This document shows positions 2,646 through 54,993 of a DNA stretch of 64,000 nucleotides, one piece after another. Made by a program: the position numbers and the translations under genes. The stretch is from Alphaproteobacteria bacterium (lineage in GTDB: Bacteria; Pseudomonadota; Alphaproteobacteria; Bin95), in the NCBI GenBank assembly GCA_965205265.1, contig CBDBGH010000003.1, forward strand, positions 1,472,001-1,536,000, read 5' to 3'. The notes beneath the pieces were generated by a model that saw only the letters and a program-made list of their open reading frames with translations, did not search any database and had not been told where the DNA came from. How positions within the stretch are numbered: the first letter of the stretch is position 1; every line of letters begins with the position of its first letter.

Positions 2646-2719
2646 GCGAGGTCCGGGACGCTGCACAGGGTAGTATTGAGACAATTTGTTCGTAAAATTA
2701 AGAATATTTCTCTATACTA

Positions 2720-2747
2720 CTTGCATTATCAGAAAGTGTGCTATGAT
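2720..2747 (+). promoter_or_regulatory. Putative sigma70 promoter with extended -10
   Basis: CTTGCA...TGTGC-TATGAT in an AT-rich patch; an equivalent motif occurs in the other two element copies. Confidence 0.55.
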
Positions 2748-3006
2748 GGGTCCGAGGGAAGCGGCGTCCATGGACCGCTTCCCGCCCGCGCCGGTCCGGT
2801 GCGGCACGACCCCGATCCAGCCGACAGGTGAAGTGTGTCCTGTGCCCGCCTCGCGCGCGGGCAATCAGGCGCGCGAACCGCGCCGCCGCGAAACGCCCGC
2901 CCGCCCGCGCACAGGCGCCCGCGCAGGATGACGCGCGAATAAGGGTCGCTCCGGTGCCGGGGCGGTGTGCCGGATGAACATGAGACGAAACCAAGGAGCC
3001 GCACCC

Positions 3007-3918
3007 ATGCCCGCGCTCGACCCGACCCTCTCCCTCTCCTCCCGCCAGGAAGCCTTCTGCCGCCACTACACAGCCTCCGGCAATGCCGCAGACGCCGCAA
3101 GGCGCGCCGGCTATGCCGAACGCTCCGCAAGGCAGACCGGCTCCGCTCTGCTGGAACGCCCCTGGATCGTCGAGCGGGTGCGGCGCATCCGCATGTCGTG
3201 GCGGCGCACCGAGCGGGACGAGGCGCAGATCGTGCTCGCCCGTCTGGAGCAGGCCTGGGATGCGGCGGTCGCCAGCGGGTCCGCCTACATGATGGTCCGG
3301 ATCGTCCGCTTCCAGGCGGAGATTGCGGGGCTGACGCAGCCCGCCAACCGGGCGGCGCTCTGGTCGATGCCGGAGGAGGACGAGTTCGGGGAGATCGAGG
3401 CCGGCGAGGCGCAGGAGGCCGGCACCGTGCCGGGACCCCTCGCCGAAGCCGTGCGCAATGGCCGTGCCCGCGCCGAGCGCGCCCTTGCCCGCCATTGCGG
3501 GAACAGGGAGGCGATGGAGGCAGGGGAAGGCTTCGACAGAGCCGCCCATGCCATGACCGCCGAACGGCTCATGGCGGCCGTCGAGGAGCGCGAGAGCCTG
3601 CCCGTCTGCTTCGACCCGCCGCCGCCTCCGGCAAACGACCTGCCCCTCGCTGACGACCCGCCCGAAGACACCTACGACCCCGAGCGGTTCCCCGGCGAGT
3701 GGGCCGACGGCGACCGCCCGGGCGAGGAGGAGAGGGCCGAGGGCGCGGAGACCGACTGGCTCTACCAGCGCCGCAACGACTATGCCGAGATCCACGACCC
3801 CTGGTCGCCGGAAAACATCGAACGCCGCCAGGCCGACAGCCTCAACCGGCTCGAGAATGGGCCGCCCTTCAACCCGCCCCGCAACCCCGGTTTCTCACCC
3901 GACCATGACATTTCATGA
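3007..3918 (+). CDS. Terminase small subunit-like protein (N-terminal HTH) with acidic, Pro-rich C-terminal tail
   Basis: LSSRQEAFCRHYTASGNAADAARRAGYAERSARQTGSALL resembles the TerS N-terminus; AAGGAG RBS at 2993-2998. Confidence 0.75.
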   Translation: MPALDPTLSLSSRQEAFCRHYTASGNAADAARRAGYAERSARQTGSALLERPWIVERVRRIRMSWRRTERDEAQIVLARLEQAWDAAVASGSAYMMVRIVRFQAEIAGLTQPANRAALWSMPEEDEFGEIEAGEAQEAGTVPGPLAEAVRNGRARAERALARHCGNREAMEAGEGFDRAAHAMTAERLMAAVEERESLPVCFDPPPPPANDLPLADDPPEDTYDPERFPGEWADGDRPGEEERAEGAETDWLYQRRNDYAEIHDPWSPENIERRQADSLNRLENGPPFNPPRNPGFSPDHDIS

Positions 3919-3983
3919 CATCCCATGACACGGCGCGAGAGGGGCGCCGTTGCCCCCATTCACCGCCCCGGCTCGCCTCCGGT

Positions 3984-4943
3984 TCAGGCGAAGGCCTCTT
4001 CCCAGCTGCCGCGGGTTGCGGCCTTGGCGTATTCGGTGGCGCGGTTCTCGAAGAAATTGGCGTGCTCGACGCCGTTCAACATTTCGTCCATCCAGGCGAG
4101 CGGGTTCTCCGCAACGCCGAACGCCGCCTCGAGGCCCAGCTGCTCCAGCCGCCGGTCTGCGATGAAGCGGATGTAGGACTTCACCTCCTCCGCCTCCAGG
4201 CCTTCGACGCCGCCCATTTCGAAAGCGAGGTCGATGAAGGCGTCCTCATGCCCGATCACCGTTCGGCAGGCGTCTGCCAGGTCCCGGCGGAGCTCATCGG
4301 TCCACACTTCGGGATATTCGCCGACAAAGGTTCGGAAGAGACGGATCGCATTCTCGGTATGCAGGGTCTCGTCGCGCGCCGACCAGGCCACGATCTGGCC
4401 CATCCCCTTCATTTTGCCGAAGCGCGGGAAGTTGAGCAGGATGGCGAAGCTCGCGAAAAGCTGGACCCCTTCGGTGAAGGCGCCGAACACGGCGAGGGTG
4501 CGCGCGATGTCTTCTTTCGAATCCGAGCCGAACTGCTTCATGTAGTCGTATTTGTCGCGCATCGCCTTGTAGCGCATGAAGGCCGAATACTCGACTTCCG
4601 GCATGCCGACCGTATCCAGCAAATGGCTGTAGGCGGCGATGTGCACCGTCTCGATATTGGAGAACGCCGCCAGCATCATCTGTATCTCGGTCGGCTCGAA
4701 GACGCGGGCGTAATGCTTCATGTAGCAGTTGTTCACCTCGACATCGGCCTGGGTGAAGAAGCGGAAGATCTGGGTGAGCAGGTTCCGTTCGGCCGGGGTG
4801 AGGATGCGCCGCCAGTCGGTCACGTCGTCGGAGAGCGGCACTTCCTCCGGCAGCCAGTGGATGCGCTGCTGTGTAAGCCAGGCATCGTAAGCCCACGGAT
4901 AGCGGAAGGGCTTGTAGGTCGGGCTCGGGTCGAGAAGCGGCAT
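3984..4943 (-). CDS. nrdB: Ribonucleotide reductase class I beta subunit
   Basis: HWLPEEV, FFTQADVEV, ETVHIAAY, FTEG, RDETLH, NFFE motifs. Confidence 0.95.
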   Translation of the reverse strand: MPLLDPSPTYKPFRYPWAYDAWLTQQRIHWLPEEVPLSDDVTDWRRILTPAERNLLTQIFRFFTQADVEVNNCYMKHYARVFEPTEIQMMLAAFSNIETVHIAAYSHLLDTVGMPEVEYSAFMRYKAMRDKYDYMKQFGSDSKEDIARTLAVFGAFTEGVQLFASFAILLNFPRFGKMKGMGQIVAWSARDETLHTENAIRLFRTFVGEYPEVWTDELRRDLADACRTVIGHEDAFIDLAFEMGGVEGLEAEEVKSYIRFIADRRLEQLGLEAAFGVAENPLAWMDEMLNGVEHANFFENRATEYAKAATRGSWEEAFA

Positions 4944-5037
4944 GGGTGCGGCACCGATGTTTCAGCCGGACAGTGTATAGCCGGGGAGGCAGCCTTGCTA
5001 TAACGGCGTCACCCGAAAGAGGCACTTGCCCGTCCCC

Positions 5038-6669
5038 ATGACCCTCCCGATCCTCCTCCTCGAAGAGGCCCTCGACGCAGCCCGGTCCTATCTGGAAGAG
5101 GCGCGCGGCAGCGTGGCGGCGCGCGTGCAGGCCGGCGGCCGGACCGACCCCGCCGCGCTTGAGCGCGACCAGTTCGCGGCCCACGGTTTCGCCTGGACCG
5201 CGACCTATGTGGCGGGCCTGCGGGAAATGCTCGGCTGGGCGCGGCGGCTGGAAGCGGCGGACAGTCTCACCGGGCTCGACCGTCTTGTACTGCAAGCTGC
5301 CTTCGGGGAATATCTGGCCCAGCTAGCGGGCGGCATCGCCGTCTCGCAGGGGGAAGCGGTCCGGCCCGCGGACCTCGGCCTCGACGACGCGGCATTGCGG
5401 GTTCCCGCCGTCGAGCGCGTCGCAGCCGAGGGCAATTCCAATGCCGTGCGCATGGAAATCGCCGCCCTTCTCGCCGAAGGCCAGAGGCCGTCCGACGGGC
5501 TGGAAGACGAATCGCTCGCTCTCGTGCGCGGCCAGTTACGCCGATTCGCGGACGAACGCATCGTGGGCCCGGCGCATGGATGGCACAGCCGCGACGAGCT
5601 CATCCCGATGCCGGTCGTCGAGGACATGGCGGCAATGGGCGTGTTCGGGCTCACCGTGCCCGAGGAATGGGGCGGGCTCGGGATGGGCAAGGTGGCCATG
5701 TGCGTGGTCACGGAGGAGCTTTCGCGCGGCTATATCGGCGTGGGCTCGCTCGGCACCCGATCGGAGATCGCGGCCGAACTCATCCGGCTCGGCGGCACAG
5801 AGGAGCAGAAGGAACGCTGGCTGCCCGGCATTGCGAGCGGCGCCGTGCTGCCGACCGCCGTGTTCACCGAACCCGATGTCGGCTCGGACCTCGGCGGCGT
5901 GAAGACGCGGGCGGTGCGGAACGGCGGGACTTACCGGGTTTCCGGCGCCAAGACCTGGATCACCCATGCGGCGCGCGCCGACCTGATGACCCTGCTCGCC
6001 CGGACCGATCCCGACAAGCCCGGCTATCGCGGCCTCTCCATGTTCCTTGCGCCGAAAACGCGCGGAAGCGATGACGACCCCTTCCCCGACCCCGGCATCG
6101 ACGGCGGTGAGATTCCCGTGCTCGGCTATCGCGGCATGAAGGAATACGAGATCGGCTTCGATGGCTTCGAGGTGGACGCGGGGGACCTTCTCGGGCGCGA
6201 GGAAGGCCAGGGCTTCAAGCAATTGATGGCGACCTTCGAAAGCGCGCGCATACAGACGGCGGCGCGCTCGGTGGGCGTGGCCGAGCGCGCGATGGAACTG
6301 GCGCTCGACTATGCCGCCGGACGCAGGCAGTTCGGTAAGGCGATCCTGGGCTTCCCGCGCGTTGCGGGCAAGATCGCCTGGATGGCGGTCGAGACCCAGA
6401 TCGCCCGCCAACTCGCCTATTTCGCCGCCCGCGAGAAGGATGGCGGCCGGCGTTGCGATATCGAGGCCGGCATGGCGAAGCTGCTGGCCGCGCGCGCCGC
6501 CTGGGCCAATGCCGACAATGCCGTCCAGGTGCATGGCGGCAATGGATACGCACAGGAATACGAGGTCGGGCGCATCCTTTGCGATGCGCGCATCCTCAAC
6601 ATCTTCGAGGGCGCGGCGGAGATACAGGCCCATGTCATCGCGCGCGGCCTGCTCGAACGCCGGAACTGA
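5038..6669 (+). CDS. Acyl-CoA dehydrogenase, probably (2S)-methylsuccinyl-CoA dehydrogenase
   Basis: N-terminal extension with QFAAHGFAW, TAVFTEP, GEIPVLGYRGMKEYE, IFEGAAEIQ. Confidence 0.8.
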   Translation: MTLPILLLEEALDAARSYLEEARGSVAARVQAGGRTDPAALERDQFAAHGFAWTATYVAGLREMLGWARRLEAADSLTGLDRLVLQAAFGEYLAQLAGGIAVSQGEAVRPADLGLDDAALRVPAVERVAAEGNSNAVRMEIAALLAEGQRPSDGLEDESLALVRGQLRRFADERIVGPAHGWHSRDELIPMPVVEDMAAMGVFGLTVPEEWGGLGMGKVAMCVVTEELSRGYIGVGSLGTRSEIAAELIRLGGTEEQKERWLPGIASGAVLPTAVFTEPDVGSDLGGVKTRAVRNGGTYRVSGAKTWITHAARADLMTLLARTDPDKPGYRGLSMFLAPKTRGSDDDPFPDPGIDGGEIPVLGYRGMKEYEIGFDGFEVDAGDLLGREEGQGFKQLMATFESARIQTAARSVGVAERAMELALDYAAGRRQFGKAILGFPRVAGKIAWMAVETQIARQLAYFAAREKDGGRRCDIEAGMAKLLAARAAWANADNAVQVHGGNGYAQEYEVGRILCDARILNIFEGAAEIQAHVIARGLLERRN

Positions 6670-6687
6670 ACGCCCGGAGCATATTGC

Positions 6688-7875
6688 ATGGCACGGATCG
6701 TCATCGTCGGCGCGGGCATAGGCGGCCTCGCCGCATCCCTCGCCCTGGCGAAGCGCGGCGTCGAGGCGCTGGTGCTGGAGCAGGCGCCGCGCATCGAGGC
6801 GGTGGGCGCCGGCATCCAGCTCAGCCCGAACGCCACGCGCATCCTGAACTGGCTCGGCCTGGAAGACGATATGGCCGGGTGGGGTGTCGAGCCGGTCGGG
6901 CTCGCGATCCGCAGCCATGAGGGCGAGATGCTGGTCGAGGCGCCGCTCGGCCGGGACGCCCGCGAGACCTTCGGCTACCCCTACTACCACGCGCATCGCG
7001 CGGACCTGCTGGACGGGCTGCTGAGCCGCCAGCCGCCGGGACGGGTGCGGCTGGGCGCGCAGGTCGTCTCGATGGAGGACGGACGGCTGACGCTTGCAGA
7101 CGGCGAAACCGTTGAAGCCGATATCGTCGTCGGCGCGGACGGCATCCACAGCCCGGTGCGCCGGCATCTCTTCGGCACAGGCAATGCGCGTCAGTCGGGC
7201 TCGGTGGCATGGCGCGCGCTGGTCCCGGCCGAGCGGCTCGCCGATCTCGGCATTCCGCGCGAGTCCGGCGTCTGGTGGGGGCCGGACGCCTGCATGGTGC
7301 GCTACTGGGTTGCTGCCGGTCGGCTGATGAACTGGATCGCCATCGCGCGCACCGACCGGGAGACGCCGGAATCCTGGTCGCGCCTCGGCCGCGTAGAGGA
7401 TGCCGCAGAGGCCATGGCACCTTTCCCGCCCACGGTCACGCGCATGGTCGAACGCACCGGGACCGTGCATGAATGGGCGCTGTTCGACCGGGAGGGCCTG
7501 CCGGCCTGGACGTGCGGGCGGGTAACGCTGCTGGGAGACGCCGCCCACGCCATGATGCCCTATCACGCGCAGGGCGCCGCCATGAGCCTGGAGGATGCCT
7601 GGGTGTTGGCCGGCTGCCTCGAAGAAGACATGGGAGAAGGCGGGCTTGCGCGTTATGAGGCGTTGCGGCGGGACCGCGCCAACCGGGTGCAGGCCTGGTC
7701 GCGCGCGGTCGAACGCCACTGCCTGCTGGCCGACCCTGCCGAAGTAGCGGTTCGCAACGCCAAGCTGGCGAAGGACCGCGCGGACTATCGCGGCGGCTTC
7801 CCGCCCGGACAGATCTGGCTCTACGGCTACGACGCCGAAGCCGCACTGTCGGAGGAATCCGCCATTGCCGGTTGA
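6688..7875 (+). CDS. FAD-dependent monooxygenase (salicylate/6-hydroxynicotinate hydroxylase-like)
   Basis: GAGIGG, GADGIHS, LLGDAAHAM.P..AQGA. Confidence 0.85.
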   Translation: MARIVIVGAGIGGLAASLALAKRGVEALVLEQAPRIEAVGAGIQLSPNATRILNWLGLEDDMAGWGVEPVGLAIRSHEGEMLVEAPLGRDARETFGYPYYHAHRADLLDGLLSRQPPGRVRLGAQVVSMEDGRLTLADGETVEADIVVGADGIHSPVRRHLFGTGNARQSGSVAWRALVPAERLADLGIPRESGVWWGPDACMVRYWVAAGRLMNWIAIARTDRETPESWSRLGRVEDAAEAMAPFPPTVTRMVERTGTVHEWALFDREGLPAWTCGRVTLLGDAAHAMMPYHAQGAAMSLEDAWVLAGCLEEDMGEGGLARYEALRRDRANRVQAWSRAVERHCLLADPAEVAVRNAKLAKDRADYRGGFPPGQIWLYGYDAEAALSEESAIAG

Positions 7876-7986
7876 TGCAAGCGGGACGAAGCCTGCCGGT
7901 TGGGTCGGCGGCGCAAATCGGGTGGAAACGCTCGAACGTCTCCGGCATTGTGCAAGATCGGCAGCGTGTCGAAAGGTCTGGGCCGC

Positions 7987-8172
7987 ATGTCCTTCCTGAT
8001 CCCGATTTTCCTCGCCGCAGTGGCGCTTGTCCTCTTCACCGGGATTTTCGGGATGATGCGGGGCGGCAGCTTCAACCGGAAATACGGCAACAAGCTGATG
8101 CAGCTTCGCGTCGGCCTGCAATTCCTCGCCATCATCCTGATCGTCGCGGCGGCGCTGCTGGCCGGCTCCTGA
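7987..8172 (+). CDS. HIG1-domain twin transmembrane small protein
   Basis: Two hydrophobic helices with the NKLMQLRV.LQ motif; directly upstream of the adenosyltransferase gene. Confidence 0.8.
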   Translation: MSFLIPIFLAAVALVLFTGIFGMMRGGSFNRKYGNKLMQLRVGLQFLAIILIVAAALLAGS

Positions 8173-8735
8173 TGGTCCGGCTCACGAAGATCTACACGAA
8201 AGGCGGCGACAGGGGGGAGACCTCGCTCGGCAACGGCGCGCGCGTCGCCAAGGACAGCATTCGCGTCGAGGCGTTCGGCGCGGTGGACGAGACCAATGCC
8301 TGCATCGGTCTCGCCCGCCTGCACGCATCGGGCGAGATGGACGACATGCTAGCGCGCATCCAGAATGACCTGTTCGACCTGGGCGCCGACCTCTGCACGC
8401 CGGAAGGCGGCGAACGGCGCACCGGGGCCTTGCGCGTCGTTCCGGAGCAGGTCCAGCGGCTGGAGGCCGAAATCGACGCGATGAACGCGGAGCTCGCGCC
8501 GCTCAACTCCTTCGTGCTGCCGGGCGGGTCGGCGGCGGCGGCGGCGCTGCATCTCGCGCGCACCACGGCCCGGCGGGCGGAGCGCGCCGTGACGGCGCTG
8601 GCCCGCGAGGAGCCCGTGGGCGAAGCCGCGCGGCACTACATGAACCGCCTCTCGGACCATCTCTTCGTCGCCGCCCGTCTGGCCAACGACAAGGGCGCCG
8701 CCGATATCCTCTGGGTGCCCGGCGCGAACCGGTGA
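8172..8735 (+). CDS. PduO-type cob(I)alamin adenosyltransferase
   Basis: KIYTKGGD.GET, QNDLFDLGADL, FVLPGG, RRAER, NRLSD. Confidence 0.92.
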   Translation: MVRLTKIYTKGGDRGETSLGNGARVAKDSIRVEAFGAVDETNACIGLARLHASGEMDDMLARIQNDLFDLGADLCTPEGGERRTGALRVVPEQVQRLEAEIDAMNAELAPLNSFVLPGGSAAAAALHLARTTARRAERAVTALAREEPVGEAARHYMNRLSDHLFVAARLANDKGAADILWVPGANR

Positions 8736-8755
8736 GGCCGTCGCCGGACGGTCGG

Positions 8756-9292
8756 TCAGTTCCCCTGCTTCCGGACCATCACGCGCCTTAGCGCCTTCCT
8801 CGCATAGTCCCAGTCGGGGCGGATGGCGAGCGAGCGCTCGTAGTCGGCGAGCGCCTCATCCAGCTGCCCCATTTCGGCCTTGAGGTCGCCGCGCACCTTG
8901 TAGGCGCGCCAGAGCTCCACCTGGCCGAGCGCGATGCTCTCGTCGAAATCGGCGAGCGCGCTTTCCAGTTCCCCCATGCGCCACTTGGCGACGCCGCGAT
9001 TGTGGAAGGCCTCGCCGTATTCCGGGCGCAATCCGATCGCCTCGTCGAAATCGGCGACCGCCTCCTTGTAGGCCCCGGTCTCGATCTGCGCCGTGCCGCG
9101 CTTGAAGAGCCCCCTTGCGCGGTCCTCCGGCGCTTCGAACAGGCCGCCTTCCAGCGCGCGCGTGCAATGCAGCACATTCGCCGAGGGCGCGCCGCCGCCC
9201 GCCATGCAGAGCATCTTGTCCCAGGAGTCCGCGGCCAGCGCCGGCCCCGCGGACAAGAGCAGCAAGAGCGCGAGTCCGGTCCTAGCGGCCAT
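8756..9292 (-). CDS. Secreted TPR-repeat protein
   Basis: Signal peptide followed by three TPR-like units (A..DFD.AI.L.P). Confidence 0.8.
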   Translation of the reverse strand: MAARTGLALLLLLSAGPALAADSWDKMLCMAGGGAPSANVLHCTRALEGGLFEAPEDRARGLFKRGTAQIETGAYKEAVADFDEAIGLRPEYGEAFHNRGVAKWRMGELESALADFDESIALGQVELWRAYKVRGDLKAEMGQLDEALADYERSLAIRPDWDYARKALRRVMVRKQGN

Positions 9293-10427: not shown

Positions 10428-10449
10428 CGGCGGGAGCTCCGGTCAAACC

Positions 10450-13413: not shown

Positions 13414-13465
13414 CCGGCGCGAACGGACACCGGGCCCCACCAATCCTGAACCGGCGAGCGACATC

Positions 13466-16334: not shown

Positions 16335-16856
16335 CCTCGCGCCGCCGTGTCATGGAATGTCATGTTTGTCATGCGGGGCCGGCAGGACCTCGTGCGATGT
16401 GTCATGAGATGTCATGATTTGCATGTGCGCGGCGCATATGCTGTGACCTGTTCGGGCATGGGGGTCGGATATTCTCTCCGGTTCCGGTAACTTCTTATCT
16501 TCGACATGGGGCCCTTCTCCCGACCGGTCTTCGTTCGGTTCTTCCCGCCGCCCGGCTGTCCGGAGCGGCGGGACCCTGATTCGCGCGTAATGTGCGCGGA
16601 CGCCTGTGCGCGCGGGGGCGTACGTTTCGCGGCGGCGCGAATCGCGCGCCTGATTGCCCGCGCCTGCCCGCGCGTGCGAGCCAGCGGCGGGACGCACTTC
16701 GCCCGTTGGCTGAATCAGGTTTTTTTCGCGCCGGCGCGAACGGCAAAACGAAGCGGACCCGCGGATGCCGCTTCCTTCCTCCTATCTCATACTAGCACAA
16801 GAATTGAATTTGTCAACGAATATGAACGAAATATTTCTGTATATTCATGAACAAAA
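16335..16856 (-). repeat. Dispersed element copy 2 (no recognisable gene)
   Basis: Core at 16572-16659 (reverse); TGTCATG at 16348, 16358, 16367, 16400, 16410; promoter TTGACA-N16-TAGTAT on the minus strand at 16816-16789. Confidence 0.8.
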
Positions 16857-16906
16857 ATTCTTTCGATCCTGAGACAGCCTTCCAGAGCGCATTTCGGGGC
16901 AAACCC

Positions 16907-41900: not shown

Positions 41901-42935
41901 CTACCCCCTTCGCAACCTTGCCGCAAGGCGGTTCCAGGCCTCTGCAAAGGCGTCGATATCCGCTTCCGAGAGGCCCGGTCCGAGGCTGACCCGGATGGCC
42001 TCGCCCGCCGCCGGTTCACCCGTGCCCATCGCCAGCAGCACATGCGAGGCATCCACCTTTCCCGAGGAGCAGGCAGCGCCGGCGCTTACCGCGAATCCCT
42101 CAAGATCGAAGGCCATCACCTGGGTCTCCCCGGAGACGCCGGGCATACCGATACAGCTTGTGTTCCCGAGCCGGGGTCCGTCGCTTCCGTAGATGACAGC
42201 GCCTTCGAGCCGGGCCTCCAGCCGGTCGCGGAGCGCCGTCATGTCGGGGAGCGGATGCGCGACCGCGCCGAAGCCGGCAATGCCGACGACATTTTCCGTG
42301 CCGCCCCGCCGCCGGCGTTCCTGCGCGCCGCGGATCGCGCCGTCGAGCGCGCGCTCCGTGCGCAGCACCAGCGCGCCGACGCCCATCGGCCCGCCGAGCT
42401 TGTGCGCCGAGAGCGCCAGCGAATCCGCCTCGATGGCGGCAAGGTCGAGCCGCCCGGCCGCCTGCACCGCGTCGCAATGCCAGAGCCCGCCGGTCTCCCG
42501 CACCCGCCGTCCGGTTTCCTCAAGAGGATGGATGGCCCCGGTTTCGTTGTTGGCGGCCATCAGCGCGACGGCCGCGCCCGGCGGGATCGATTCGGGGCGA
42601 ATGCGTCCGCCGCCGTCCACGGCGAGGCGCGGACCGGCGATATGGTCGAGCACGGATGCATGCTCGCTCGCCCCCGCCAGCCATTCGCGCCCGGCGAGCG
42701 CGAGCGCGTTCGCCTCGGTGCCGCCGGAGGTGAACACGACCTGCTCCGGCGCCGCGCAGGCAAAGGCCGCGACCCGCGCCCGCGCCTCCTCGACGAGGCG
42801 TCGTGCGGCGCGCCCCTCGCCATGCACGGAGGAAGGGTTGCCGAGCACGGCCATCGCGGCCGCCATGGCCTCCTGCGCAGCCGGAGCCAGCGGCGCGGTG
42901 GCGTTCCAGTCCATGTAAATGCGGCGTTTTGCCAT
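41901..42935 (-). CDS. Cysteine desulfurase (NifS/IscS-like)
   Basis: Y.D.NAT, GNPSS.H, SAHK.GGP, GTEN, SAGAACSSG. Confidence 0.92.
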   Translation of the reverse strand: MAKRRIYMDWNATAPLAPAAQEAMAAAMAVLGNPSSVHGEGRAARRLVEEARARVAAFACAAPEQVVFTSGGTEANALALAGREWLAGASEHASVLDHIAGPRLAVDGGGRIRPESIPPGAAVALMAANNETGAIHPLEETGRRVRETGGLWHCDAVQAAGRLDLAAIEADSLALSAHKLGGPMGVGALVLRTERALDGAIRGAQERRRRGGTENVVGIAGFGAVAHPLPDMTALRDRLEARLEGAVIYGSDGPRLGNTSCIGMPGVSGETQVMAFDLEGFAVSAGAACSSGKVDASHVLLAMGTGEPAAGEAIRVSLGPGLSEADIDAFAEAWNRLAARLRRG

Positions 42936-43053
42936 GATGCGGCCTCTTGACGGCCCGAACCGACCGACCCAGTTAGATCGCGCTCATCCGATAAGGAAAG
43001 CCCCTCCGGCGGCAGGCCTGCCGCCCGGACCGAAGGAACGGGATTCCACGCCC

Positions 43054-43704
43054 ATGCCCGACGTTATCGTGAACGGCCCCGAGGGCCGGCTCGAAGCGCG
43101 CTACCATCATGTCGACGACCAGGCGGCCCCGATTGCGCTGATGCTCCACCCGCATCCGCAGCATGGCGGCACGATGCACAACAAGGTGGTTTACAACCTG
43201 TTCCATTGCTTCGTCCGGCGCGGGTTCTCGGTCATGCGCTTCAACTTCCGCGGCGTCGGGCGCTCGCAGGGCGAATACGGGCGCGGAGAAGGCGAACTCG
43301 CCGACGCGGCGGCCATCCTCGACCACATGCAAAGCCTCAGGAAGGACCCCGTCAAGGTCTGGATCGCGGGCTTTTCCTTCGGCGCCTGGATCGGCATGCA
43401 GCTGCTGATGCGCCGGCCGGAGATTTCCGGCTTCATCTCCGTCGCCCCGCCGGCGAACATGTACGACTTCTCCTTCCTGGCGCCCTGCCCGTCCTCGGGC
43501 CTGATCGTCAACGGCACGAAGGACGAGATCGTGACGACCGATTCGGTCGAGAAGCTGGTCGAGAAGCTGCGCACCCAGCGCGGCATCGTCATCGACCACA
43601 AGGTCATCCCCGGCGCCAACCACCTCTTCACCCGGCATCTCGAACAGCTGAACGGCGCGGTCGAGAGCTATCTGGACAAGCGCCTAGCAGCAGACAGCGG
43701 CTGA
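43054..43704 (+). CDS. Alpha/beta hydrolase
   Basis: HPHPQHGG.M, FNFRGVG.S.G, GFSFG. Confidence 0.9.
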   Translation: MPDVIVNGPEGRLEARYHHVDDQAAPIALMLHPHPQHGGTMHNKVVYNLFHCFVRRGFSVMRFNFRGVGRSQGEYGRGEGELADAAAILDHMQSLRKDPVKVWIAGFSFGAWIGMQLLMRRPEISGFISVAPPANMYDFSFLAPCPSSGLIVNGTKDEIVTTDSVEKLVEKLRTQRGIVIDHKVIPGANHLFTRHLEQLNGAVESYLDKRLAADSG

Positions 43705-45584: not shown

Positions 45585-45587
45585 GCC

Positions 45588-46898: not shown

Positions 46899-46915
46899 CG
46901 GCCGCCGCCTTCCGG

Positions 46916-47926: not shown

Positions 47927-48006
47927 GGGGATACGATTGACCTTCAGGCGCGGGAGGGGCGAGCATAGGGCGGGCGGGAGGCCGGTCAAGCTTTGGGAAC
48001 TGCGGA

Positions 48007-48225: not shown

Positions 48226-48983
48226 ACGAAGCCGTCAGCGAAGACACCCTGCTGGGCGGCAGGGTCCGGCTGCGGCAGTCCGCAAAGGGCTACCGGGTCG
48301 CAATAGACCCCGTGCTGCTGGCTGCGGCGGTGCCCGCCCGGCCGGGAGAGCAGGTGCTGGAAATCGGCGCGGGCACCGGCGCTGCGGCCCTGTGTCTGGC
48401 AAGCCGCGTGGAAGGATGCATCGTCACCGGGCTCGAGCGCGACCGGGAGCTTGCCGGGCTCTGCCGGGAGAATGTCGAGGCGAACGGCTTCGAGCGCACC
48501 GTCGATGTCATGGTCGGCGACCTGCGCGCCCCGCCGGCCCGCCTCGGGCCCGCGAGCTTCGACCATGCGATGGCGAACCCGCCCTGGCTCTCGAAGACGG
48601 CCGGCCCTTCGCCCCGGAACCGGCAGCGCGCGCGGGCGCATGTCGAGCAGGGCGCGGACCTCATGCACTGGGTGCGCTTCGCGGCCACCATGCTGCGGCG
48701 GGGCGGCACGTTGACCACGATCCTGACCGCCGAGCGTCTGGACGAGCACCTTGCCGCCTACACCGCCTCCGGAATCGGGGAGACTGCGGTCGTCCCCCTC
48801 TGGTCGAAGAACGACGGCCGCCCGGCCCACCGCGTCATACTGCGTGGACGCAAGGACATCCGGGCGCCGGTTTCGCTGCTTCCCGGATTCGTCCTGCATG
48901 TCGGAAATGGCAGCTACTCACCTGAAATAGAACAAATATTGCGTAATGGCGGAGCGCTGGACTTTACATGGCGGCGCCGATAG
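48222..48983 (+). CDS. tRNA1(Val) A37 N6-methyltransferase-like protein
   Basis: GYR..IDPVLLAA, EIGAGTG, ANPP. Confidence 0.85.
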   Translation: MNEAVSEDTLLGGRVRLRQSAKGYRVAIDPVLLAAAVPARPGEQVLEIGAGTGAAALCLASRVEGCIVTGLERDRELAGLCRENVEANGFERTVDVMVGDLRAPPARLGPASFDHAMANPPWLSKTAGPSPRNRQRARAHVEQGADLMHWVRFAATMLRRGGTLTTILTAERLDEHLAAYTASGIGETAVVPLWSKNDGRPAHRVILRGRKDIRAPVSLLPGFVLHVGNGSYSPEIEQILRNGGALDFTWRRR

Positions 48984-49041
48984 TCGAAAGCTCTGCCGCC
49001 CCCTTTCCCAACTCGCAATCCAACACAGGAGAAAGACCCCC

Positions 49042-49401
49042 ATGAGCATCGAACGATTCGACCGCACGAGCCCGCCCGGGCCCATGATGAGCCGCTGCGT
49101 CGTCCGGGGCGACACGGTGTATCTGGCCGGCCTCGTGGCGCGTGACACGAGCGGCGATGTCGAGGCGCAGACCGCGGATATCCTCGAGCAGATCGACGGC
49201 TATCTGGAGCGCGCCGGCACCTCGAAATCCAGCCTGCTGACGGCCAATCTCTGGATCACCGACATGGCCAATTTCGCGGCCATGAACAAGGTCTGGAACG
49301 GTTGGGTCGATCCCGAGAACCCGCCGGCCCGCGCCTGCGTGAAGGCGGATCTGGCGCGGCCCGAGATCCTCGTCGAGATCATGGTGACGGCAGCGCGCTG
49401 A
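49042..49401 (+). CDS. RidA family protein
   Basis: VYLAG, MN.VW..W, PARACV, VEIMV.AA. Confidence 0.9.
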   Translation: MSIERFDRTSPPGPMMSRCVVRGDTVYLAGLVARDTSGDVEAQTADILEQIDGYLERAGTSKSSLLTANLWITDMANFAAMNKVWNGWVDPENPPARACVKADLARPEILVEIMVTAAR

Positions 49402-49428
49402 CGCTGGCGACGAAACGGGAGGCGGCCA

Positions 49429-50397
49429 GTGGCGGAAGCTGCTTCGACCGCCCCCGTCTGGGCCTTGACGACCGGCGAAGCCGGCGCGGCCGGGCAGGCC
49501 GAGGGGCTGGCGGCGGCGGTCGGGCGGCCTTTCGAGGTCAGGACCGTCCGCCTGCGCCGCCCCTGGTCGTGGCTGCCGGCGCACCGGCAGGCGCCGGGCC
49601 TGCTTCAAACCGGACTGGTGGAAAGCCTCGGGCCCCCCTGGCCGGAACTGCTGATTACCTGCGGCCGGCGAAGCGCCTCGGTCTCCATCGCTGTCCGCCG
49701 CGCTTCCGCCGGGCGGTGCTTCACCGTCCATATCCAGAATCCGCGCGTGCCGCTGCGCCATTTCGACTTGGTGGTGCCGCCCCGCCATGACGGCATCGGC
49801 GGCTCCAATGTGCTGGAGACGCGGGTTGCGCTCCACCGCCTGACGCCGGACGCGCTCGCTTCTGCCGGCGAGGCATGGCGGGAGAGGCTCGGCGATCTGA
49901 ATGTCGCCGTGCTGCTCGGCGGCAGAAGCCGCTCCCACCGCTTCACGCCCGAAACCGTGAAGGCGCTGGCGGACGGGCTCGCAGGACTGGAGGGGCCGGT
50001 TGCCGTCACCGCCTCCCGGCGAACGGAGCCGGATGTCGTCGCCGCCCTCAAGGCGCGTTTGCCGGACGCCTGGTTCTGGGACGGGAGCGGCTGCAACCCC
50101 TATCCCGGCATGCTGGCGCTGGCCCGGCATATCGTAGTCACGGAAGACTCGGTCTCCATGACCAGCGAGGCCGTATCGACCGGCAGGCCCGTCTATGCGG
50201 CACGCATGGCGGGCGGCAACCGGCGGCTTGCGCGCTTTCAGGCGGCGCTGAGGGCGGAAGGCGTCGTCCGCCCGTTCCAAGGCCGTCTGGAGGAATGGCG
50301 GTACGAGCCGATCGACGAAACCCCGCGCGTCGCCGCCGAATTGCTCCGGCGCATGGACGCAAGGAATTTGCAGGCGGGGCGATTGCGGGGAGAATAG
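49429..50397 (+). CDS. ELM1-like family protein
   Basis: HIQNP, FDLVV.P.HD, SRRT, NPY, VTEDSVSM.SEA. Confidence 0.88.
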   Translation: MAEAASTAPVWALTTGEAGAAGQAEGLAAAVGRPFEVRTVRLRRPWSWLPAHRQAPGLLQTGLVESLGPPWPELLITCGRRSASVSIAVRRASAGRCFTVHIQNPRVPLRHFDLVVPPRHDGIGGSNVLETRVALHRLTPDALASAGEAWRERLGDLNVAVLLGGRSRSHRFTPETVKALADGLAGLEGPVAVTASRRTEPDVVAALKARLPDAWFWDGSGCNPYPGMLALARHIVVTEDSVSMTSEAVSTGRPVYAARMAGGNRRLARFQAALRAEGVVRPFQGRLEEWRYEPIDETPRVAAELLRRMDARNLQAGRLRGE

Positions 50398-50423
50398 CAG
50401 CAGATTGTCTCGGGAGGCTTGCG

Positions 50424-51284
50424 ATGACGGCAGACAACCCCGGTTTGGACATTCGTCCGAGCAGCGCGCCGGTCGGGGCCGAAGTGTTCGGCGTGGACCT
50501 GTCGGCGCCGTTGCCCGATGAGGTCTTCGAGGCGTGCGAGGCGGCGTTCGACCGCTACAGCGTGCTGTGCTTCCGGGGCCAGTCGCTGACGCCCGGGGCG
50601 CTGCTCGCCTTCTCCCGCCGGCTCGGGGAGATCAAGGTCAACGCCTTCCACCAGCATGCGCTGGAGGGCTTCCCGGAGGTGCTCAAGGTCTCGAACCTCC
50701 GGGACGGAGAGGGCCGTGCGCTCGGCTATGCCGACGCCGGCAGCCACTGGCACACCGACATGTCCTACACGGCCGAACCGCCGCGCCGGACCCTGCTCTA
50801 CGCGCTGGAAGTCCCGCAGGACGACGCGGGCGAGCCGCTCGGCCCCACGTTCTTCGCCAGCGCCGCGGCGGCCTATGACGCGCTTGACGGGGAAACCCGC
50901 AACCGGATCGAGGGCCTCCAGGCAGTCCACCGCTTCGCCGCCAAGGAACGCGGCGTGAGGAAGCCCGTAGCCGTGACCCGGGCGCAGATCGAGGAGAACC
51001 CGGACGCCCGCCACCCGGTCGCCCGCCCGCACCCGAAAACGGGCCGCAAGGCGCTCTATGTGCGCAAGGGCGAGTGCATCGGCATAGACGGCATGGAGGA
51101 AGGCGAGGCGCTGGCGCTGATCGACCGGCTCTCCGACCTTATCGTCGAGGAGCGCTTCATCTACCGCCACCGCTGGGCTGTCGGCGACCTGCTGATGTGG
51201 GACAACCCGGCCGTCCAGCACATCGCCATCCGCGACTACGAATGGCCCCAGCGCCGCGCCATGTGGCGCACGACCGTGAGATAG
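50424..51284 (+). CDS. TauD/TfdA family 2-oxoglutarate dioxygenase
   Basis: WHTD.SY, HPV...HP.TGRK, WDN..VQH. Confidence 0.92.
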   Translation: MTADNPGLDIRPSSAPVGAEVFGVDLSAPLPDEVFEACEAAFDRYSVLCFRGQSLTPGALLAFSRRLGEIKVNAFHQHALEGFPEVLKVSNLRDGEGRALGYADAGSHWHTDMSYTAEPPRRTLLYALEVPQDDAGEPLGPTFFASAAAAYDALDGETRNRIEGLQAVHRFAAKERGVRKPVAVTRAQIEENPDARHPVARPHPKTGRKALYVRKGECIGIDGMEEGEALALIDRLSDLIVEERFIYRHRWAVGDLLMWDNPAVQHIAIRDYEWPQRRAMWRTTVR

Positions 51285-51302
51285 CGCTCTTACCGACTCC
51301 CC

Positions 51303-52070
51303 TCAGAGCAGACCGGCCGCGCGCACTTGCGGAAGGTAGGTGCGGCTGACAGGGACCTTGTGGCCGCCGGTGAGGCGAAGTGTGGGGCGGCCCCCTGCGC
51401 GCTCCGCTCCCGTCACATGGGCCCGCGCCACCCAGTAGGAGCGGTGGACGCGCATGCCGTCGGCGCCCTCCAGTTCCGCTATGGCGTCGGCGAAGCGCAT
51501 CAGCACGAGGTCCGAGCCCTCTGTGGTGAACGCCTCGACATAGTGGTCGGCCATCCGGAGATAGACGAGGTCGCGGCCGATCCCGTGCGGCAGGCGGTCG
51601 AGGAAACGGGGCGGCGCTGCGGCGGGCGCTTCCTGCACCTGCGGGGCGGGCCTGCTGCGGATAGCCAGGACCGCCGCACTGATGACCAGCCCTATGACCG
51701 CGACCCCCAGATAGATCTCCGGCAGCCGGTCCAGACCGACATAGCCCGGCCGGAACAGCGTTTCGGCAGCGAAGACGATTGCGGTTCCCGGCACGGCGGC
51801 CAATACCGCTGCCGCCGCCACCGCCAGGCCCCGGCGCGGGAGCGGCCAGTCATGCGCCAGGTGCAGCACCAGCAGCATCGAGCCGGCCCAGATGCTCCAA
51901 TTGCCGCTCATCGCCAGCAGCCAGTAGCCGGCGCGCCCCAACGGACTCATCGAATCGTATGTCCCGAAGGGGCCGATGAAGGCGAACAGCGCGACGACCC
52001 CGGCAAGCGCCGCCGCATGGCCGGCGACCTGCCTCTGCAATCCGCGAAGCGTGAACTGCATTTGCTGCAA
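51303..52070 (-). CDS. Membrane-anchored LytTR DNA-binding protein
   Basis: Four TM segments (GPFGT) plus C-terminal ADHYV...RVHRSYWV...VPVSR. Confidence 0.88.
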   Translation of the reverse strand: MQQMQFTLRGLQRQVAGHAAALAGVVALFAFIGPFGTYDSMSPLGRAGYWLLAMSGNWSIWAGSMLLVLHLAHDWPLPRRGLAVAAAAVLAAVPGTAIVFAAETLFRPGYVGLDRLPEIYLGVAVIGLVISAAVLAIRSRPAPQVQEAPAAAPPRFLDRLPHGIGRDLVYLRMADHYVEAFTTEGSDLVLMRFADAIAELEGADGMRVHRSYWVARAHVTGAERAGGRPTLRLTGGHKVPVSRTYLPQVRAAGLL

Positions 52071-52185
52071 TGCGCGAAATATCCGCTGCCTTTCCCGTAT
52101 CGAAGCATGACTCCGGCGGCCCCGCCGTCAACATCCCCGGCGCGGCGCACCCGCCGCATGCAAACCGCTGCCGGAGAACGGAACG

Positions 52186-52647
52186 ATGAATGCACCCCCC
52201 GCAAACAGGCTCGCAACGCTCGGAGCCGCCGCCCTCGCGCTGCTGGTCCCCGCCTTCGCCTCCGCCGCCGATCTGGTCGTGCGCGTCGAGGGCGTGCGCT
52301 CGGCCGAGGGCGACATCCGCGTCGCCCTCCACCGCCGCGCCGAGGGCGTGGACTTCCCCGACTCGGCCGGAGTCGTGAAGGCGGCCATGCGCCCGGCCGC
52401 GAAGGCCGGCGACCTGGTGTTCGCCGGCCTAGCGCCCGGCGAATACGCCATCGCCGCCTTTCACGACGAGGACCGGAACGGCGACCTCAACACCGGCCTG
52501 CTGGGCATCCCGACCGAGGGCTACGGCTTCTCCAACGAGGCGCGCGGCATGTTCGGGCCACCCGGCTTCGACGCGGCGGCCTTCACCATTGAGGCCGGCG
52601 AGGACCGCGCTGCCGTCACGGTCAGGCTCGGCTACCCGGAGTCCTGA
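52186..52647 (+). CDS. DUF2141 family protein
   Basis: Signal peptide, PG.YAIA.FHDE..NG.L, GIP.EGYGFSN. Confidence 0.88.
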   Translation: MNAPPANRLATLGAAALALLVPAFASAADLVVRVEGVRSAEGDIRVALHRRAEGVDFPDSAGVVKAAMRPAAKAGDLVFAGLAPGEYAIAAFHDEDRNGDLNTGLLGIPTEGYGFSNEARGMFGPPGFDAAAFTIEAGEDRAAVTVRLGYPES

Positions 52648-52650
52648 GCC

Positions 52651-54135
52651 ATGAAACCGCAGATTTCCCGCAGGGACGCGCTGCGCGCCGCCGGAAGCCT
52701 GCCGCTGCTGCTGGCCGCCGGGGCGGCGGGCGCATCCGGCGCTTCCGGCGGAGACGAGGCGCTCGCCTTCGCCACCGCAGAGGCGGAACGGCTCTCCGCG
52801 CCCTTGCAAACGCTGCGCGGCCGGCTCCCGCCGGACCTCGCCGGCACGCTCTGGCGCAACGGCCCGGCCGAGCATGACCGCTTCGGCCATCGCTACAGCC
52901 ACTGGTTCGACGGCGACGGCATGGTGCAGGCCTTCCGCTTCGACGGCGCGGCCGTCACCCACCGGGCGCGCATCCTGGACACGCCCAAGCGCCGCCGGGA
53001 GACCGAAGCCGGGCGGCGCCTGCTGCCGGCCTTCGGCTCCATGCCGCCCGATCCGGCGGACACGCGGGGCCCCGACGACATGAACGCCGCCAACACCTCC
53101 GTGGTCGTCCATGCCGGGCGGCACATGGCGCTCTGGGAGGGCGGGTCGGCGCTGGCCTTCGACCCCGAAACGCTGGATGCCGGCGGTTTCGTGGCGTGGC
53201 GCAAGGACATTGCCGGCGCGCCCTTCTCCGCCCATCCCAAGGTCGAGGCCGACGGCACGATGTGGAACATCGGCTACCTGCCCGTTCCGCGCCCGATGCT
53301 GGTCTTCTACCGCATCGGTCCGCAAGGCCGGCTCGCAAAGGTGACTGTGCTGCCGATGGCGCCGCTCGGCCTCACCCACGATTTCGTGATGACGGAACGG
53401 CGGCTGGTGGTGCTGCTCGCGCCCTTCGTGCTGGACCCGGACAGGTTCGCTTCCGGCCATATGCCCATCCTCGACGCCCATGCCTGGCGGCCGGAGCTTG
53501 GCGTGCGCGTGCTGGTCGTGGACAAGGACAGCCTGGAAGTCGAGCGCCGCCACGAGCTTCCGCCGGGCTTCCATTTCCATCACGGCAACGGTTGGGAGGA
53601 GATGGACGGCACGATCCGTCTCGATCTCTGCCAGGCGCCGGACCCGTCCTTCGTCACCCGCGACTTCCGCGATGTCATGCGGGGCGACACCCGCTTCCGG
53701 TCGGCGCATCCGGTCTATCGCCGGGCCGTGCTTCGCCCGGACGGGCGCGCGGAATACGAGGAGGGCGGGACGGTCGCTGCGGACTTCCCGCGCATAGACC
53801 CGCGCCGCCTCGGCCGGCGGAACGACGTGACCTTCGCGCTGGCGGGCGCGGACGAGCCCGCGGGCTGGCCGCTCCGGCGCGTGGTCCGGTTTGCGCCGGG
53901 GGAGGCGGACGGCTGGCGCTGGCCCCGCCACCGGATACCGGAGGAGCATGTGTTCGTTCCCCGCGGCGCGGGAGAAGGCGAAGGCTGGCTGCTCGGCCCC
54001 TTCCTGGACCTGAGGCGGCGCGCCTCGGGCCTGGCGGTCTTCGAGGCGCAGCGCCTCGCCGACGGCCCGGTCTGGGAAGGCATCCTCCCCTACCCCTTGC
54101 CGCTCGGCCTGCACGGAACCTTCGCGCCGGCGTGA
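52651..54135 (+). CDS. Carotenoid oxygenase family protein with Tat-like signal
   Basis: SRRDAL N-terminus; RNGP, HWFDGDG, AHPK, THDF, FHHGN, LGLHG. Confidence 0.9.
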   Translation: MKPQISRRDALRAAGSLPLLLAAGAAGASGASGGDEALAFATAEAERLSAPLQTLRGRLPPDLAGTLWRNGPAEHDRFGHRYSHWFDGDGMVQAFRFDGAAVTHRARILDTPKRRRETEAGRRLLPAFGSMPPDPADTRGPDDMNAANTSVVVHAGRHMALWEGGSALAFDPETLDAGGFVAWRKDIAGAPFSAHPKVEADGTMWNIGYLPVPRPMLVFYRIGPQGRLAKVTVLPMAPLGLTHDFVMTERRLVVLLAPFVLDPDRFASGHMPILDAHAWRPELGVRVLVVDKDSLEVERRHELPPGFHFHHGNGWEEMDGTIRLDLCQAPDPSFVTRDFRDVMRGDTRFRSAHPVYRRAVLRPDGRAEYEEGGTVAADFPRIDPRRLGRRNDVTFALAGADEPAGWPLRRVVRFAPGEADGWRWPRHRIPEEHVFVPRGAGEGEGWLLGPFLDLRRRASGLAVFEAQRLADGPVWEGILPYPLPLGLHGTFAPA

Positions 54136-54185
54136 GGGCGGCCGCCCGGACGAAGGGAGACGGTGGAACGGAGGACCCCGGTGGA

Positions 54186-54993
54186 TGTCATGGGATGTCA
54201 TGTTCCGGGCTCCTTCGCCGCCTCGTTTCCACGTCGCCCCGGCGCCGCCGGGCCGATACCTCTCTCCGGCGTTCCTCCGGTTGCAGGAGGTCCCCGCTTT
54301 CGCGGGGACGACGAAGGGAAGTACGGGGACGACGAAGGGAATTACGGGGACGACGAAGGGAATTACGGGGACGACGAAAGGGAGCGTGGACGCGACGAAC
54401 GGGGCGCGGGAAGGCCGGCCTCTCGACCGGGCGGCGGCCTCCGGCAAAGTGTCATGTTCTGTCATGCGCGCCCGGCGGGACGCCCTCCGATGTGTCATGC
54501 AATGTCATGATTCGCATGCACAGGGTGCATATGCTGTGGCCCGTTCGGGCATATGACCCCGCCCCTTTCTTCCTCCCCCGGCTTTCCCGCAAGCGGGGGA
54601 GGAGTTTTCCGGCGGCATGTCGTTCCTTCATCGCGTTTCGTTCCTCCCCGTTCCGTTCTCCCCGCCGCCGCGCCGAACGCGGCGAACGTTACCGATGCCG
54701 CCGCCGTCCGGCTCCCCGGAGCGACGGGACCCTGATTCGCGCGTATCCTGCGCGCCTGCGCCCGCGCCCGCCGGCGCGCGTTTCGCGGCGGCGCGAATCG
54801 CGCGCCTGATTGCCCGGATGCGCCCGCGCGCGCGAGGCCGACGCCGGGCGCACCCCTCCCGTCCGCCCGCGCCGGAGGTTTCGCCCCCAGCCACCGCTTC
54901 CCCGCCCGGAAACGCAAAAAGGCGGCCCCGGAAGCCGCCTTTCTATGCGCATTGTAACACAGTTTTTCTCAGGTCAAGCCCCTGGCGAACAAA
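54186..54993 (-). repeat. Dispersed element copy 3 (no recognisable gene; contains REP and tandem repeat)
   Basis: Core at 54728-54815; TGTCATG at 54186, 54196, 54450, 54460, 54493, 54503; promoter CTTGAC...TGTGT-TACAAT on the minus strand at 54978-54951. Confidence 0.8.
54289..54383 (+). repeat. REP half-site followed by a 21-bp tandem repeat (~3.7 units)
   Basis: GTCCCCGCTTTCGCGGGGAC, then units CGGGGACGACGAAGGGAA(G/T)TA at 54303, 54324, 54345, 54366. Confidence 0.9.

Follow-up and report, generated by a model that had tools for sequence, protein, structure and literature searches.

A high-copy modular repeat family with phased CATGACA arrays and an occasional TerS-like gene in an alphaproteobacterial genus

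The window analysed here, i.e., the whole stretch of 64,000 nucleotides at positions 1,472,001-1,536,000 of CBDBGH010000003.1 (the chromosome contig, C3) in the genome of an Alphaproteobacteria bacterium (GCA_965205265.1, labelled G000), holds three intergenic loci built from the same modules in the same order: copy 1 (2685-3939, plus strand), copy 2 (16335-16856, minus strand), and copy 3 (54186-54993, minus strand). Each begins with an AT-rich, promoter-like stretch directly followed by a stem-loop, continues with a GC-rich core, and ends in clustered CATGACA repeats; copy 1 also carries, between core and repeats, an open reading frame (ORF) resembling a phage terminase small subunit (TerS). 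When the 5' parts are aligned, mean column identity is 67% and the core (ca. 90 bp) is invariant. The original prediction, made from the letters alone, had described a dispersed three-copy element with this architecture. The loci indeed lie where it placed them, and the count of three is right for the window; for the genome, it is far too low. Sixteen congeneric genomes (G001 to G016) were included in the comparison.

Copy number and module order

Used as a blastn query, the 89-bp core of copy 1 recovers 71 copies at 80-100% identity, all of them on the chromosome (5.46 Mb); the 193-kb and 43-kb replicons have none. With a profile built from 19 short copies, nhmmer gave 110 matches that merge into 82 units: 57 with both end modules; 19 with the 5' module only (a class judged by the short-copy profile, and including TerS-bearing units); 4 with the 3' module only; and 2 internal pieces. 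The family amounts to about 75-80 small intergenic elements per genome. From 5' to 3' the order is an AT-rich promoter stretch, the stem-loop, a GC-rich leader with the core, a Shine-Dalgarno sequence (SD) with ATG, a variable middle, and the CATGACA repeats. The 5' stretch, measured in 12 copies, has 38% GC, the genome as a whole 68%; this stretch carries a TTGTTC motif along with the promoter. After the stem-loop with its TCCGG loop come CGCGCCGGCGCG and an A-run; the GC-rich leader is roughly 330 nt long and its near-invariant core reads GGGCAATCAGGCGCGCGA..CGCGCCGCCGCGAAACG ... ACGCGCGAATCAGGGTCCCGCCGC. Most forms carry a 3' module (CATGCCCGAA..CATATG..GCATGC) ahead of 2-5 CATGACA at 10-bp spacing.

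The units measure 400-1300 bp and hold at most one ORF each. The majority are short (S form, 360-800 bp), with short middle remnants like those of non-autonomous derivatives; seven copies carry an intact TerS-like gene (T form, 303 aa), to which internal-deletion remnants are to be added; and nine carry a second cargo (C2 form), a protein of 195-206 aa, typically 198 aa. Gene-bearing and gene-less copies with one module order thus occur genome-wide, in line with the cargo/empty family that had been proposed. Many units are cut short, nested, or broken by insertion sequences (IS) or miniature inverted-repeat transposable elements (MITEs), and the short copies have diverged to 66-91% identity to copy 2. 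Over 52 copies from this genome and 13 congeners, conservation is block-wise, the blocks being promoter, hairpin, core, SD, and arrays. The convergent downstream gene seen at all three window copies is not a rule of the family: by crude GC3-based gene calls, the downstream gene is convergent for 40 and co-oriented for 41 of 81 units. The replication-strand count (34/76) is uninformative because the cumulative GC skew is not V-shaped and 50% of genes lie on the presumed 'leading' strand.

In the window CATGACA is found 20 times; shuffled sequences have 3.73 +/- 1.79, and 0/100 of them reach 20; 14 of these 20 lie inside the three loci, every one on the element strand. Across the genome CATGACA is found downstream on the same strand for 67 of the 71 cores, and on the opposite strand for only 6. 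There are 83 arrays of paired CATGAC, 63 of them within less than 2 kb downstream of a same-strand core; therefore, the modules do not occur independently of each other; independent occurrence would have spoken against the family. Thirteen of the other 20 arrays were inspected: six are chance pairs in coding regions, and the rest are solo 3' modules or remnants severed by insertions. A second repeat family, with ends reading GGGGCTTATATGGATAGGTTGACAACAGGTTTG, is inserted exactly at the AACATGA of arrays near C3 positions 979377, 840606, and 2146006, which suggests that it targets them; repeats with the same ends also precede the units at C3:195 and 4632762.

Cargo proteins, leader, and the link between gene and array

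The ORF of copy 1 matches Terminase_2 (PF03592) with 50.7 bits against a cut-off of 26.1 (3.7e-13, residues 11-87) as well as phrog_51 (1e-13), which bears out the resemblance first read from its translation. The Pfam match spans only profile positions 2-75 of 141. The AlphaFold2 (AF2) model (mean pLDDT 60) has a helix-turn-helix (HTH) at residues 12-49, a long helix at 52-90, and then isolated helices and disorder; it shows no oligomerisation barrel. The best fold matches in the PDB are SPP1-like/SF6 G1P and its DNA-binding domain (2cmp/4zc3; 39-40% identity over 50 aa, TM 0.82). By profile and model, the N-terminus is a predicted small-terminase DNA-binding domain of the SPP1/SF6 G1P type.

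The seven full-length genes of this genome are intact and 92-100% identical. Among 8000 candidates scored, 364 are homologues at E<=1e-5; PF03592 is found on 119 of the 120 homologues listed, and the one named entry is a 'terminase small subunit' of an uncultured alphaproteobacterium. In 35 aligned homologues residues are conserved over the whole length, and all 35 C-termini read ..HD.. encoded by CATGAC, so that the gene is tied to the array, as had been claimed. In copy 1 the ORF stops at the TGA within the second CATGACA, and the array therefore overlaps the gene end; since the 10-bp period is not divisible by 3, any three repeats in phase offer TGA and ATG in all three frames. For the C-terminal 164 residues, a search of 1.84 billion proteins yields only 29 cluster representatives, and none of these exceeds 452 aa, hence no fusion to an enzyme is seen.

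More distant homologues (53-60% identity, ca. 400 aa, several copies per record) occur in other records of uncultured Alphaproteobacteria or Rhodospirillaceae. At 13 of 18 such loci an AT-rich promoter is directly followed by GAAC-N7-GAA[CT], and four of the five loci lacking this box have less than 200 nt of upstream sequence. Near-perfect or perfect GAAC-N7-GAAC lies between promoter and start at L050, L052, L053, L055, L056, L058, L059, L061, L062, L065, L071, L072, and L078. A section of PMC8565304 gives the alphaproteobacterial LexA motif as GTTC-N7-GTTC, of which this box is the reverse complement; it is thus LexA-type. These loci have no profile match to the GC-rich leader or core, and 10-bp-phased CATGAC stands at the gene 3' end at 6 of 12 of them. 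Because this lineage keeps gene and array without the core, the gene-array pair is an old conserved unit and the long leader a genus-specific addition. A LexA box in the elements of the present genome was considered and dropped (2/71, chance level).

The second cargo belongs to no Pfam, NCBIfam, or PADLOC family (neither NCBIfam nor PADLOC has one for the TerS-like protein either) and has a weak PHROG match of unassigned function (7.5e-05). Its 147 homologues are lineage-restricted; its model consists of two long helices and two beta-hairpin/helix repeats, and the ESM Atlas returns unnamed clusters with a best score of 0.85. The S forms retain SD and ATG with a frame of 31 or 41 codons starting MPKTxSRxNRxEYPEP. 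Of 52 elements examined, 35 have a recognised start, and in 26 of those the frame runs to the TGA of a CATGAC. The two S isoforms read the 3'-module DNA in two different frames; the module therefore is conserved as DNA and not as protein.

As to the sigma70-like promoter that had been claimed for all three loci, the promoter scan called it only in copy 2 (TTGACA-16-TAGTAT, with TG upstream). Copies 1 and 3 escape the scan because their 15-nt spacers fall outside its range of 16-18, and their promoters, with extended -10 boxes, were read by eye. A promoter-like match was obtained for 47 distinct upstream regions; 24 of them have a 15-nt and 13 a 16-nt spacer, and 28 show TG ahead of the -10; the elements probably carry strong, near-consensus promoters of the sigma70 type. 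In almost every distinct copy the stem-loop after the -10 folds with an energy between -12 and -33 kcal/mol; it has a conserved TCCGG loop and an inner 5-bp stem that is invariant over 27 copies from across the genus. Only one of its seven predicted pairs changes on both sides, the pairs of the core never vary, and RNAalifold yields almost no consensus structure over the whole leader. An operator-like 15-nt inverted repeat (TTTGTTCATGAATAT / ATATTCGTTGACAAA; window 16809-16855) flanks the stretch ahead of the -35 of copy 2 and overlaps this -35; being inconsistent in copies 1 and 3, it was discarded as a family feature.

Distribution, occupied and empty sites

With copy 2 as query, matches are found in 13 of the 16 congeneric genomes and in none of 24 genomes outside the genus. 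A 24-nt core motif (<=2 mismatches) occurs 71 times here and 5-117 times in 13 of the 16 congeners; it is absent from G001, G003, and G013 and from two sister genera (20 genomes). The reversed control gave 0, and counts on both strands are about equal. Exact CATGACA-N3-CATGACA pairs number 103 here, 112-319 in the TerS-positive congeners, 23 in G008, and 0-1 elsewhere. A TerS-like gene was found in 12 of the 16 congeners, G009 and G014 having fragments only. In G011, which has TerS-like genes together with 217 array pairs, only 5 strict cores are counted because its copies bear a shortened core. Many matches lie at contig ends, and the family thereby explains many contig breaks in the assemblies of this genus.

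Seven orthologous sites were compared, and at each of them some species have the element and others lack it (Table 1). The element at C3:665171-665772 starts 0-3 nt past the stop codon of the upstream gene. At four sites only 0-6 nt separate the last CATGAC[AG] from the 3' end of the element; the 5' end, ca. 45-65 nt upstream of the -35, is less sharp. The cleanest site is flanked by GCTAGG and GCTGGG, where empty sites read GCTGAGGG; these flanks could be a decayed 8-bp duplication. CTGTC, seen by eye in 4 copies, was rejected as a common 5' terminus, as it is absent from others including the cleanest junction. In a nucleotide tree of the TerS-like genes (7 copies here, 10 from G005, 8 from G012) the copies form three genome-specific clades. 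The G005 copy that is syntenic with window copy 1 groups among the G005 paralogues, a pattern that implies either gene conversion between copies or their repeated replacement.

Table 1. Element features in the window and orthologous sites in the genus (window positions unless C3 is given; copies 2 and 3 run on the minus strand)
Feature	Position	Strand	Basis	Filled in	Empty in
Copy 1 AT-rich 5' end: TTTGTTC motif, -35-like TTGCAT (2721-2726), 15-nt spacer, TGc + TATGAT (2739-2747)	2680..2747	+	read from sequence		
Copy 1 stem-loop GGGAAGCGGC-GTCCATGGA-CCGCTTCCC, directly after -10	2756..2783	+	minimum free energy -23.8 kcal/mol		
Copy 1 GC-rich core, 89 bp	2860..2948	+	blastn query		
Copy 1 TerS-like ORF, 303 aa, SD upstream	3007..3918	+	Pfam Terminase_2		
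Copy 1 three CATGACA at 10-bp spacing, element 3' end	3904..3930	+	motif count		
Copy 2 AT-rich 5' end: TTGACA (16816-16811), 16-nt spacer with TG, TAGTAT (16794-16789)	16789..16880	-	promoter scan		
Copy 2 5' limit	near 16880	-	comparison with G007		
Copy 2 stem-loop, then GTTTTG	16750..16775	-	folding		
Copy 2 GC-rich core	16572..16658 (C3:1488658-1488572)	-	blastn		
Copy 2 SD and 31-codon mini-ORF (MSKIRSYRNRREYPTPMPEQVTAYAPRTCKS), stop = TGA of first CATGACA	16412..16507	-			
Copy 2 3' module (CATGCCCGAA..CATATG..GCATGC) and two CATGACA clusters (2 + 3 repeats)	16348..16462	-			
Copy 3 AT-rich 5' end: TTGACC (54977-54972), 15-nt spacer, TGt + TACAAT (54956-54951)	54951..55012	-			
Copy 3 5' limit	near 55012	-	comparison with G012		
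Copy 3 stem-loop, then T-run (terminator-like)	54916..54943	-	folding		
Copy 3 GC-rich core	54728..54814 (C3:1526814-1526728)	-	blastn		
Copy 3 first two CATGACA pairs	54450..54509	-	motif count		
Copy 3 terminal CATGACA pair	54186..54202	-	homology to empty G012 restarts 3-4 nt beyond		
Copy 1 site				G005, same place and orientation	G014
Copy 2 site					G005, G012 (10 nt between convergent stop codons)
Copy 3 site					G014, G012
Site	C3:665171-665772			G000; G014 contig ends inside element	G004, G009, G011, G016, G006 (3-16 nt between convergent stop codons); G003, G013 by coordinates
Site	C3:1576441			G007, G006; G016 has core + arrays in ~1-kb gap	G015, G003, G013
Site	C3:4266811			G007, G005	G011, G003
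Site	C3:1408162			partly or fully in at least G005, G007, G010, G012	G006

Several further observations concern the surroundings of the elements. Just 5' of copy 1, window 2541-2647 holds a unit of ca. 105 bp with inverted ends (CCTCATCCCGAGT ... ACTTGGGATGAGG) that resembles a different MITE, and copy 3 (window ~54305-54395, minus strand) has 3-4 tandem 21-nt units (CCCTTCGTCGTCCCCGTAATT) between its second and third CATGACA clusters. One IS, whose transposase ORF begins MTHKKTDTIEVAAAKAGFG, sits in two different elements (the C3 695181 and 3851200 units), and a further small palindromic repeat (..CGTCATGCCCGGACTTGTTCCGGGCATGACG..) occurs nested within many elements, for instance in the C2-type units at C3 1296714, 1039551, and 3954367 and at L137 1945-1980. 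In G007, at a 3-nt intergenic spot filled by the element in G000, lies an unrelated insertion of ca. 900 bp (L148, G007:C136:19050-20250) with an apparent GIY-YIG-like protein (by eye) and a clear flanking CTGAGGGC duplication; insertions may favour this spot. Between 4.63 and 5.41 Mb of C3 there are zero elements in 0.78 Mb, where ca. 11 would be expected at mean density, and there are none on contigs C1 and C2. The unit pairs C3 195-647 / 4632762-4633214 and 42553-43194 / 5413545-5414186 have identical nhmmer scores and flanks, which points to large segmental duplications or to an assembly artefact (reported contamination of the genome, 7.28%).

What kind of element this may be

The nearest known kinds of element each fail at a defining feature. 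Small terminases of pac phages recognise repeated sites located within or next to the gene that encodes them. The T form shares with the SPP1/SF6-type proteins the N-terminal HTH DNA-binding domain and the phased sites at the gene; it differs in its length of 303 aa with a lineage-specific C-terminal half, in the lack of a large terminase, capsid, or portal nearby or elsewhere in the genome by the families searched, and in its seven dispersed copies, each with its own promoter, accompanied by ca. 65 gene-less derivatives. Pairs of MITEs and autonomous elements are alike in high copy number, intergenic siting, internal deletions that keep the ends, filled and empty sites, and nesting. Here, in contrast, the long forms encode only the TerS-like or the family-less 198-aa protein and no transposase, a terminal inverted repeat (TIR) was not detected, no target-site duplication was demonstrated, and the ends are asymmetric, with a promoter on one side and a direct-repeat array on the other; that no transposase, TIR, or target duplication was seen at the window copies had been remarked from the outset. 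The ends of Mu-, Tn7-, and Tn402-type transposons are asymmetric and carry several protein-binding direct repeats; our elements, too, have direct repeats right at one end and terminate in ...CA-3', but lack a DDE transposase and matching inverted sites at the other end (the 5' TTGTTCATGAA motif weakly resembles the reverse complement of TTCATGACA, by eye). Phage satellites of the Staphylococcus aureus pathogenicity island (SaPI) or phage-inducible chromosomal island (PICI) kind likewise combine a chromosomal TerS-like protein and a cognate site without a large terminase, and by this likeness helper dependence would be implied. They exceed 10 kb, whereas the present elements, at 0.4-1.3 kb with at most one ORF and tens of copies, hold no integrase, repressor, replication, or capsid-remodelling gene. 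REPINs are described in part of PMC8049555 as short, non-coding intragenomic hairpin repeats served in trans by a protein encoded elsewhere. As hairpin-bearing repeat populations with service in trans, REPIN-RAYT and IS200/IS605-PATE systems are similar to our family, which differs from them in having no Y1 HUH transposase, units of 400-1300 bp with promoter and SD, and no equivalent strand bias. Full-text searches of the literature, supplements excluded, returned no description of such an element.

We tentatively favour, with a probability of about 0.42, a modular, transposase-less family of the mobile type in which a TerS-derived protein binds the terminal phased repeats and an enzyme acting in trans carries out the DNA chemistry. 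Each element would be a transcription unit of promoter, 5' stem-loop, leader, SD-ATG, variable middle, and array. The HTH protein from the seven intact copies would oligomerise and bind the 3'-terminal phased repeats of all copies, much as the small terminases of pac phages do on sites in or beside their gene, and the bound end would be marked for a DNA-processing enzyme encoded outside the element, be it the terminase of a helper phage or an enzyme of the host or of another element. The short forms would be internal-deletion derivatives that keep only the parts needed in cis and are served in trans. This reading draws on the copy number and uniform module order, on the gene-carrying and deleted forms, on the restriction of the core to the genus, on the seven sites of varying occupancy, on the array at the 3' end of the element, on gene copies that cluster by genome, on the G1P-type domain, and on the gene-array link, which extends to the distant lineage and to the array-pair counts (103-319 in TerS-positive genomes, 0-1 in those lacking the element).

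A number of results weigh against this reading. No form encodes a catalytic protein, the TerS-like model consisting of HTH, helices, and disorder, and the second cargo has no family and no fold match (Foldseek against the PDB, none at E<=0.001). The genome has no match to the large terminase (TerL) families PF03354, PF03237, and PF04466 or to the HK97 capsid (PF05065), and the portal (PF04860) appears only as a fragment below the cut-off. The Y1 HUH transposase (PF01797) has 0 matches, with the control positive in 6 of 14 reference genomes, and Y2 HUH is represented by one 40-position fragment with an internal stop; HUH-type single-strand transposition was accordingly set aside for want of a resident enzyme. 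Nine reverse-transcriptase matches occur in the genome, and the promoter-bearing 5' end argues against RNA-mediated copying. The repeat search of copy 2 detected no TIR (a gapped 9-10-nt resemblance was seen by eye only), and the shuffle test for target duplications, which covers only 12 of the 71 elements, gave 4.42 against 3.92; a value as high as the observed one arose in 14 of 300 shuffles, which is borderline. When the contigs of four runs were overlaid, the core showed multi-copy depth and no contig formed a joint across an empty site. Why gene-less forms retain promoter and leader is not accounted for. Finally, the complete genome of G008 has 45 cores and 23 array pairs and no TerS-like match at E<=1e-10; the six loci examined there have no CATGAC pair downstream of the core, and the one copy followed to its end finishes in a degenerate CATGATATTTCATGAGG. 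As 23 exact array pairs persist in G008, the gene-array correlation drawn from it is soft.

The original prediction had thought of dispersed packaging-initiation sites. The copies would then be pac-type origins where the TerS-like protein recruits the large terminase of an infecting or induced phage to the arrays, capsids being filled unidirectionally with the element and the neighbouring chromosome, and the element would spread by transduction and homologous recombination. The G1P-type domain, the phased repeats overlapping the gene 3' end in 35/35 homologues, and the co-orientation of all arrays with the gene agree with this, and the LexA box ahead of distant homologues (13/18 loci) would time expression with prophage induction. 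However, the partner is missing, as the absent TerL and capsid matches and the sub-threshold portal fragment indicate; tblastn found no match in 50,697 phage records, and IMG/VR has only distant matches at the HTH level (28-36% identity, 4 loci). Moreover, the Pfam match is partial, with no barrel modelled, the second cargo is unrelated to TerS, and G008 keeps its cores without a TerS-like gene. Insertion at some 80 new loci is left unexplained by transduction with homologous recombination, as is the promoter and leader kept in gene-less copies, and we regard such origins as rather unlikely. The regulon that had been named beside them, a domesticated network of 'mobile promoters' in which a TerS-derived factor or roadblock on the arrays controls read-through into neighbours, appears rather doubtful as well. 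It draws on near-consensus promoters that are conserved across the genus, on the co-oriented gene downstream of 41 of 81 units, on the block-wise conservation over 52 copies, on copies shared at the same site by several species, and on precedent, promoter reuse in prokaryotes being described in a portion of PMC3575422; but half of the units face a convergent gene, sites often are empty in sister species, the arrays lie at the far end of the unit away from the promoter, and clustering by genome with 0-117 copies fits turnover better than a fixed regulon.

If instead leader and core were the product, as a multicopy non-coding RNA or leader-peptide family with the proteins as passengers, one would understand the core 24-mer that is nearly invariant between species, the stable stem-loop after the -10 with its TCCGG loop, and the mini-ORF with its conserved SD-ATG and CATGAC stop (26/35). 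The lack of a consensus fold, with one of seven hairpin pairs changed on both sides and invariant core pairs, speaks against such a product, as do the absence of Rfam matches (for the window at gathering scores, for copy 2 at E<=1), the distant lineage that keeps gene and array without the core, and the shortened cores of G011; the reading of the 3' module in two frames removes any protein constraint there. We consider this improbable. That the copies are inert relics of a single old duplication burst of a prophage fragment, now functionless and immobile, would suit the divergence of the short copies (66-91% identity to copy 2) and the many truncated, nested, or interrupted units. It is very hard to reconcile with intact TerS-like ORFs at 92-100% identity and whole-length conservation in 35 homologues, with block-wise conservation across the genus, and with copies that cluster by genome at sites whose occupancy varies between species, and it has very little probability in our view.

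A bolder version, which we deem unlikely, would see here a new, transposase-less selfish 'pac cassette' whose sole element-specific parts are the TerS-derived protein and the terminal phased array. Upon DNA damage or phage infection this protein would load a helper terminase at the ca. 80 chromosomal sites, with the gene-less copies as passengers served in trans; if true, the element would drive transduction of itself and its neighbours, and the chromosome would be dotted with origins of lateral transduction. Judging from their sequences, the elements would in any case provide each genome with some 40-120 strong, outward-facing promoters, under an annotation that reads, if anything, 'terminase small subunit'. 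Should the favoured interpretation be true, a mobile or transduction-promoting element would be built on a small-terminase DNA-binding domain and not on a transposase or integrase, which would open a testable route to how phage-mediated transfer singles out chromosomal DNA and to how high-copy repeats without an enzyme of their own spread.

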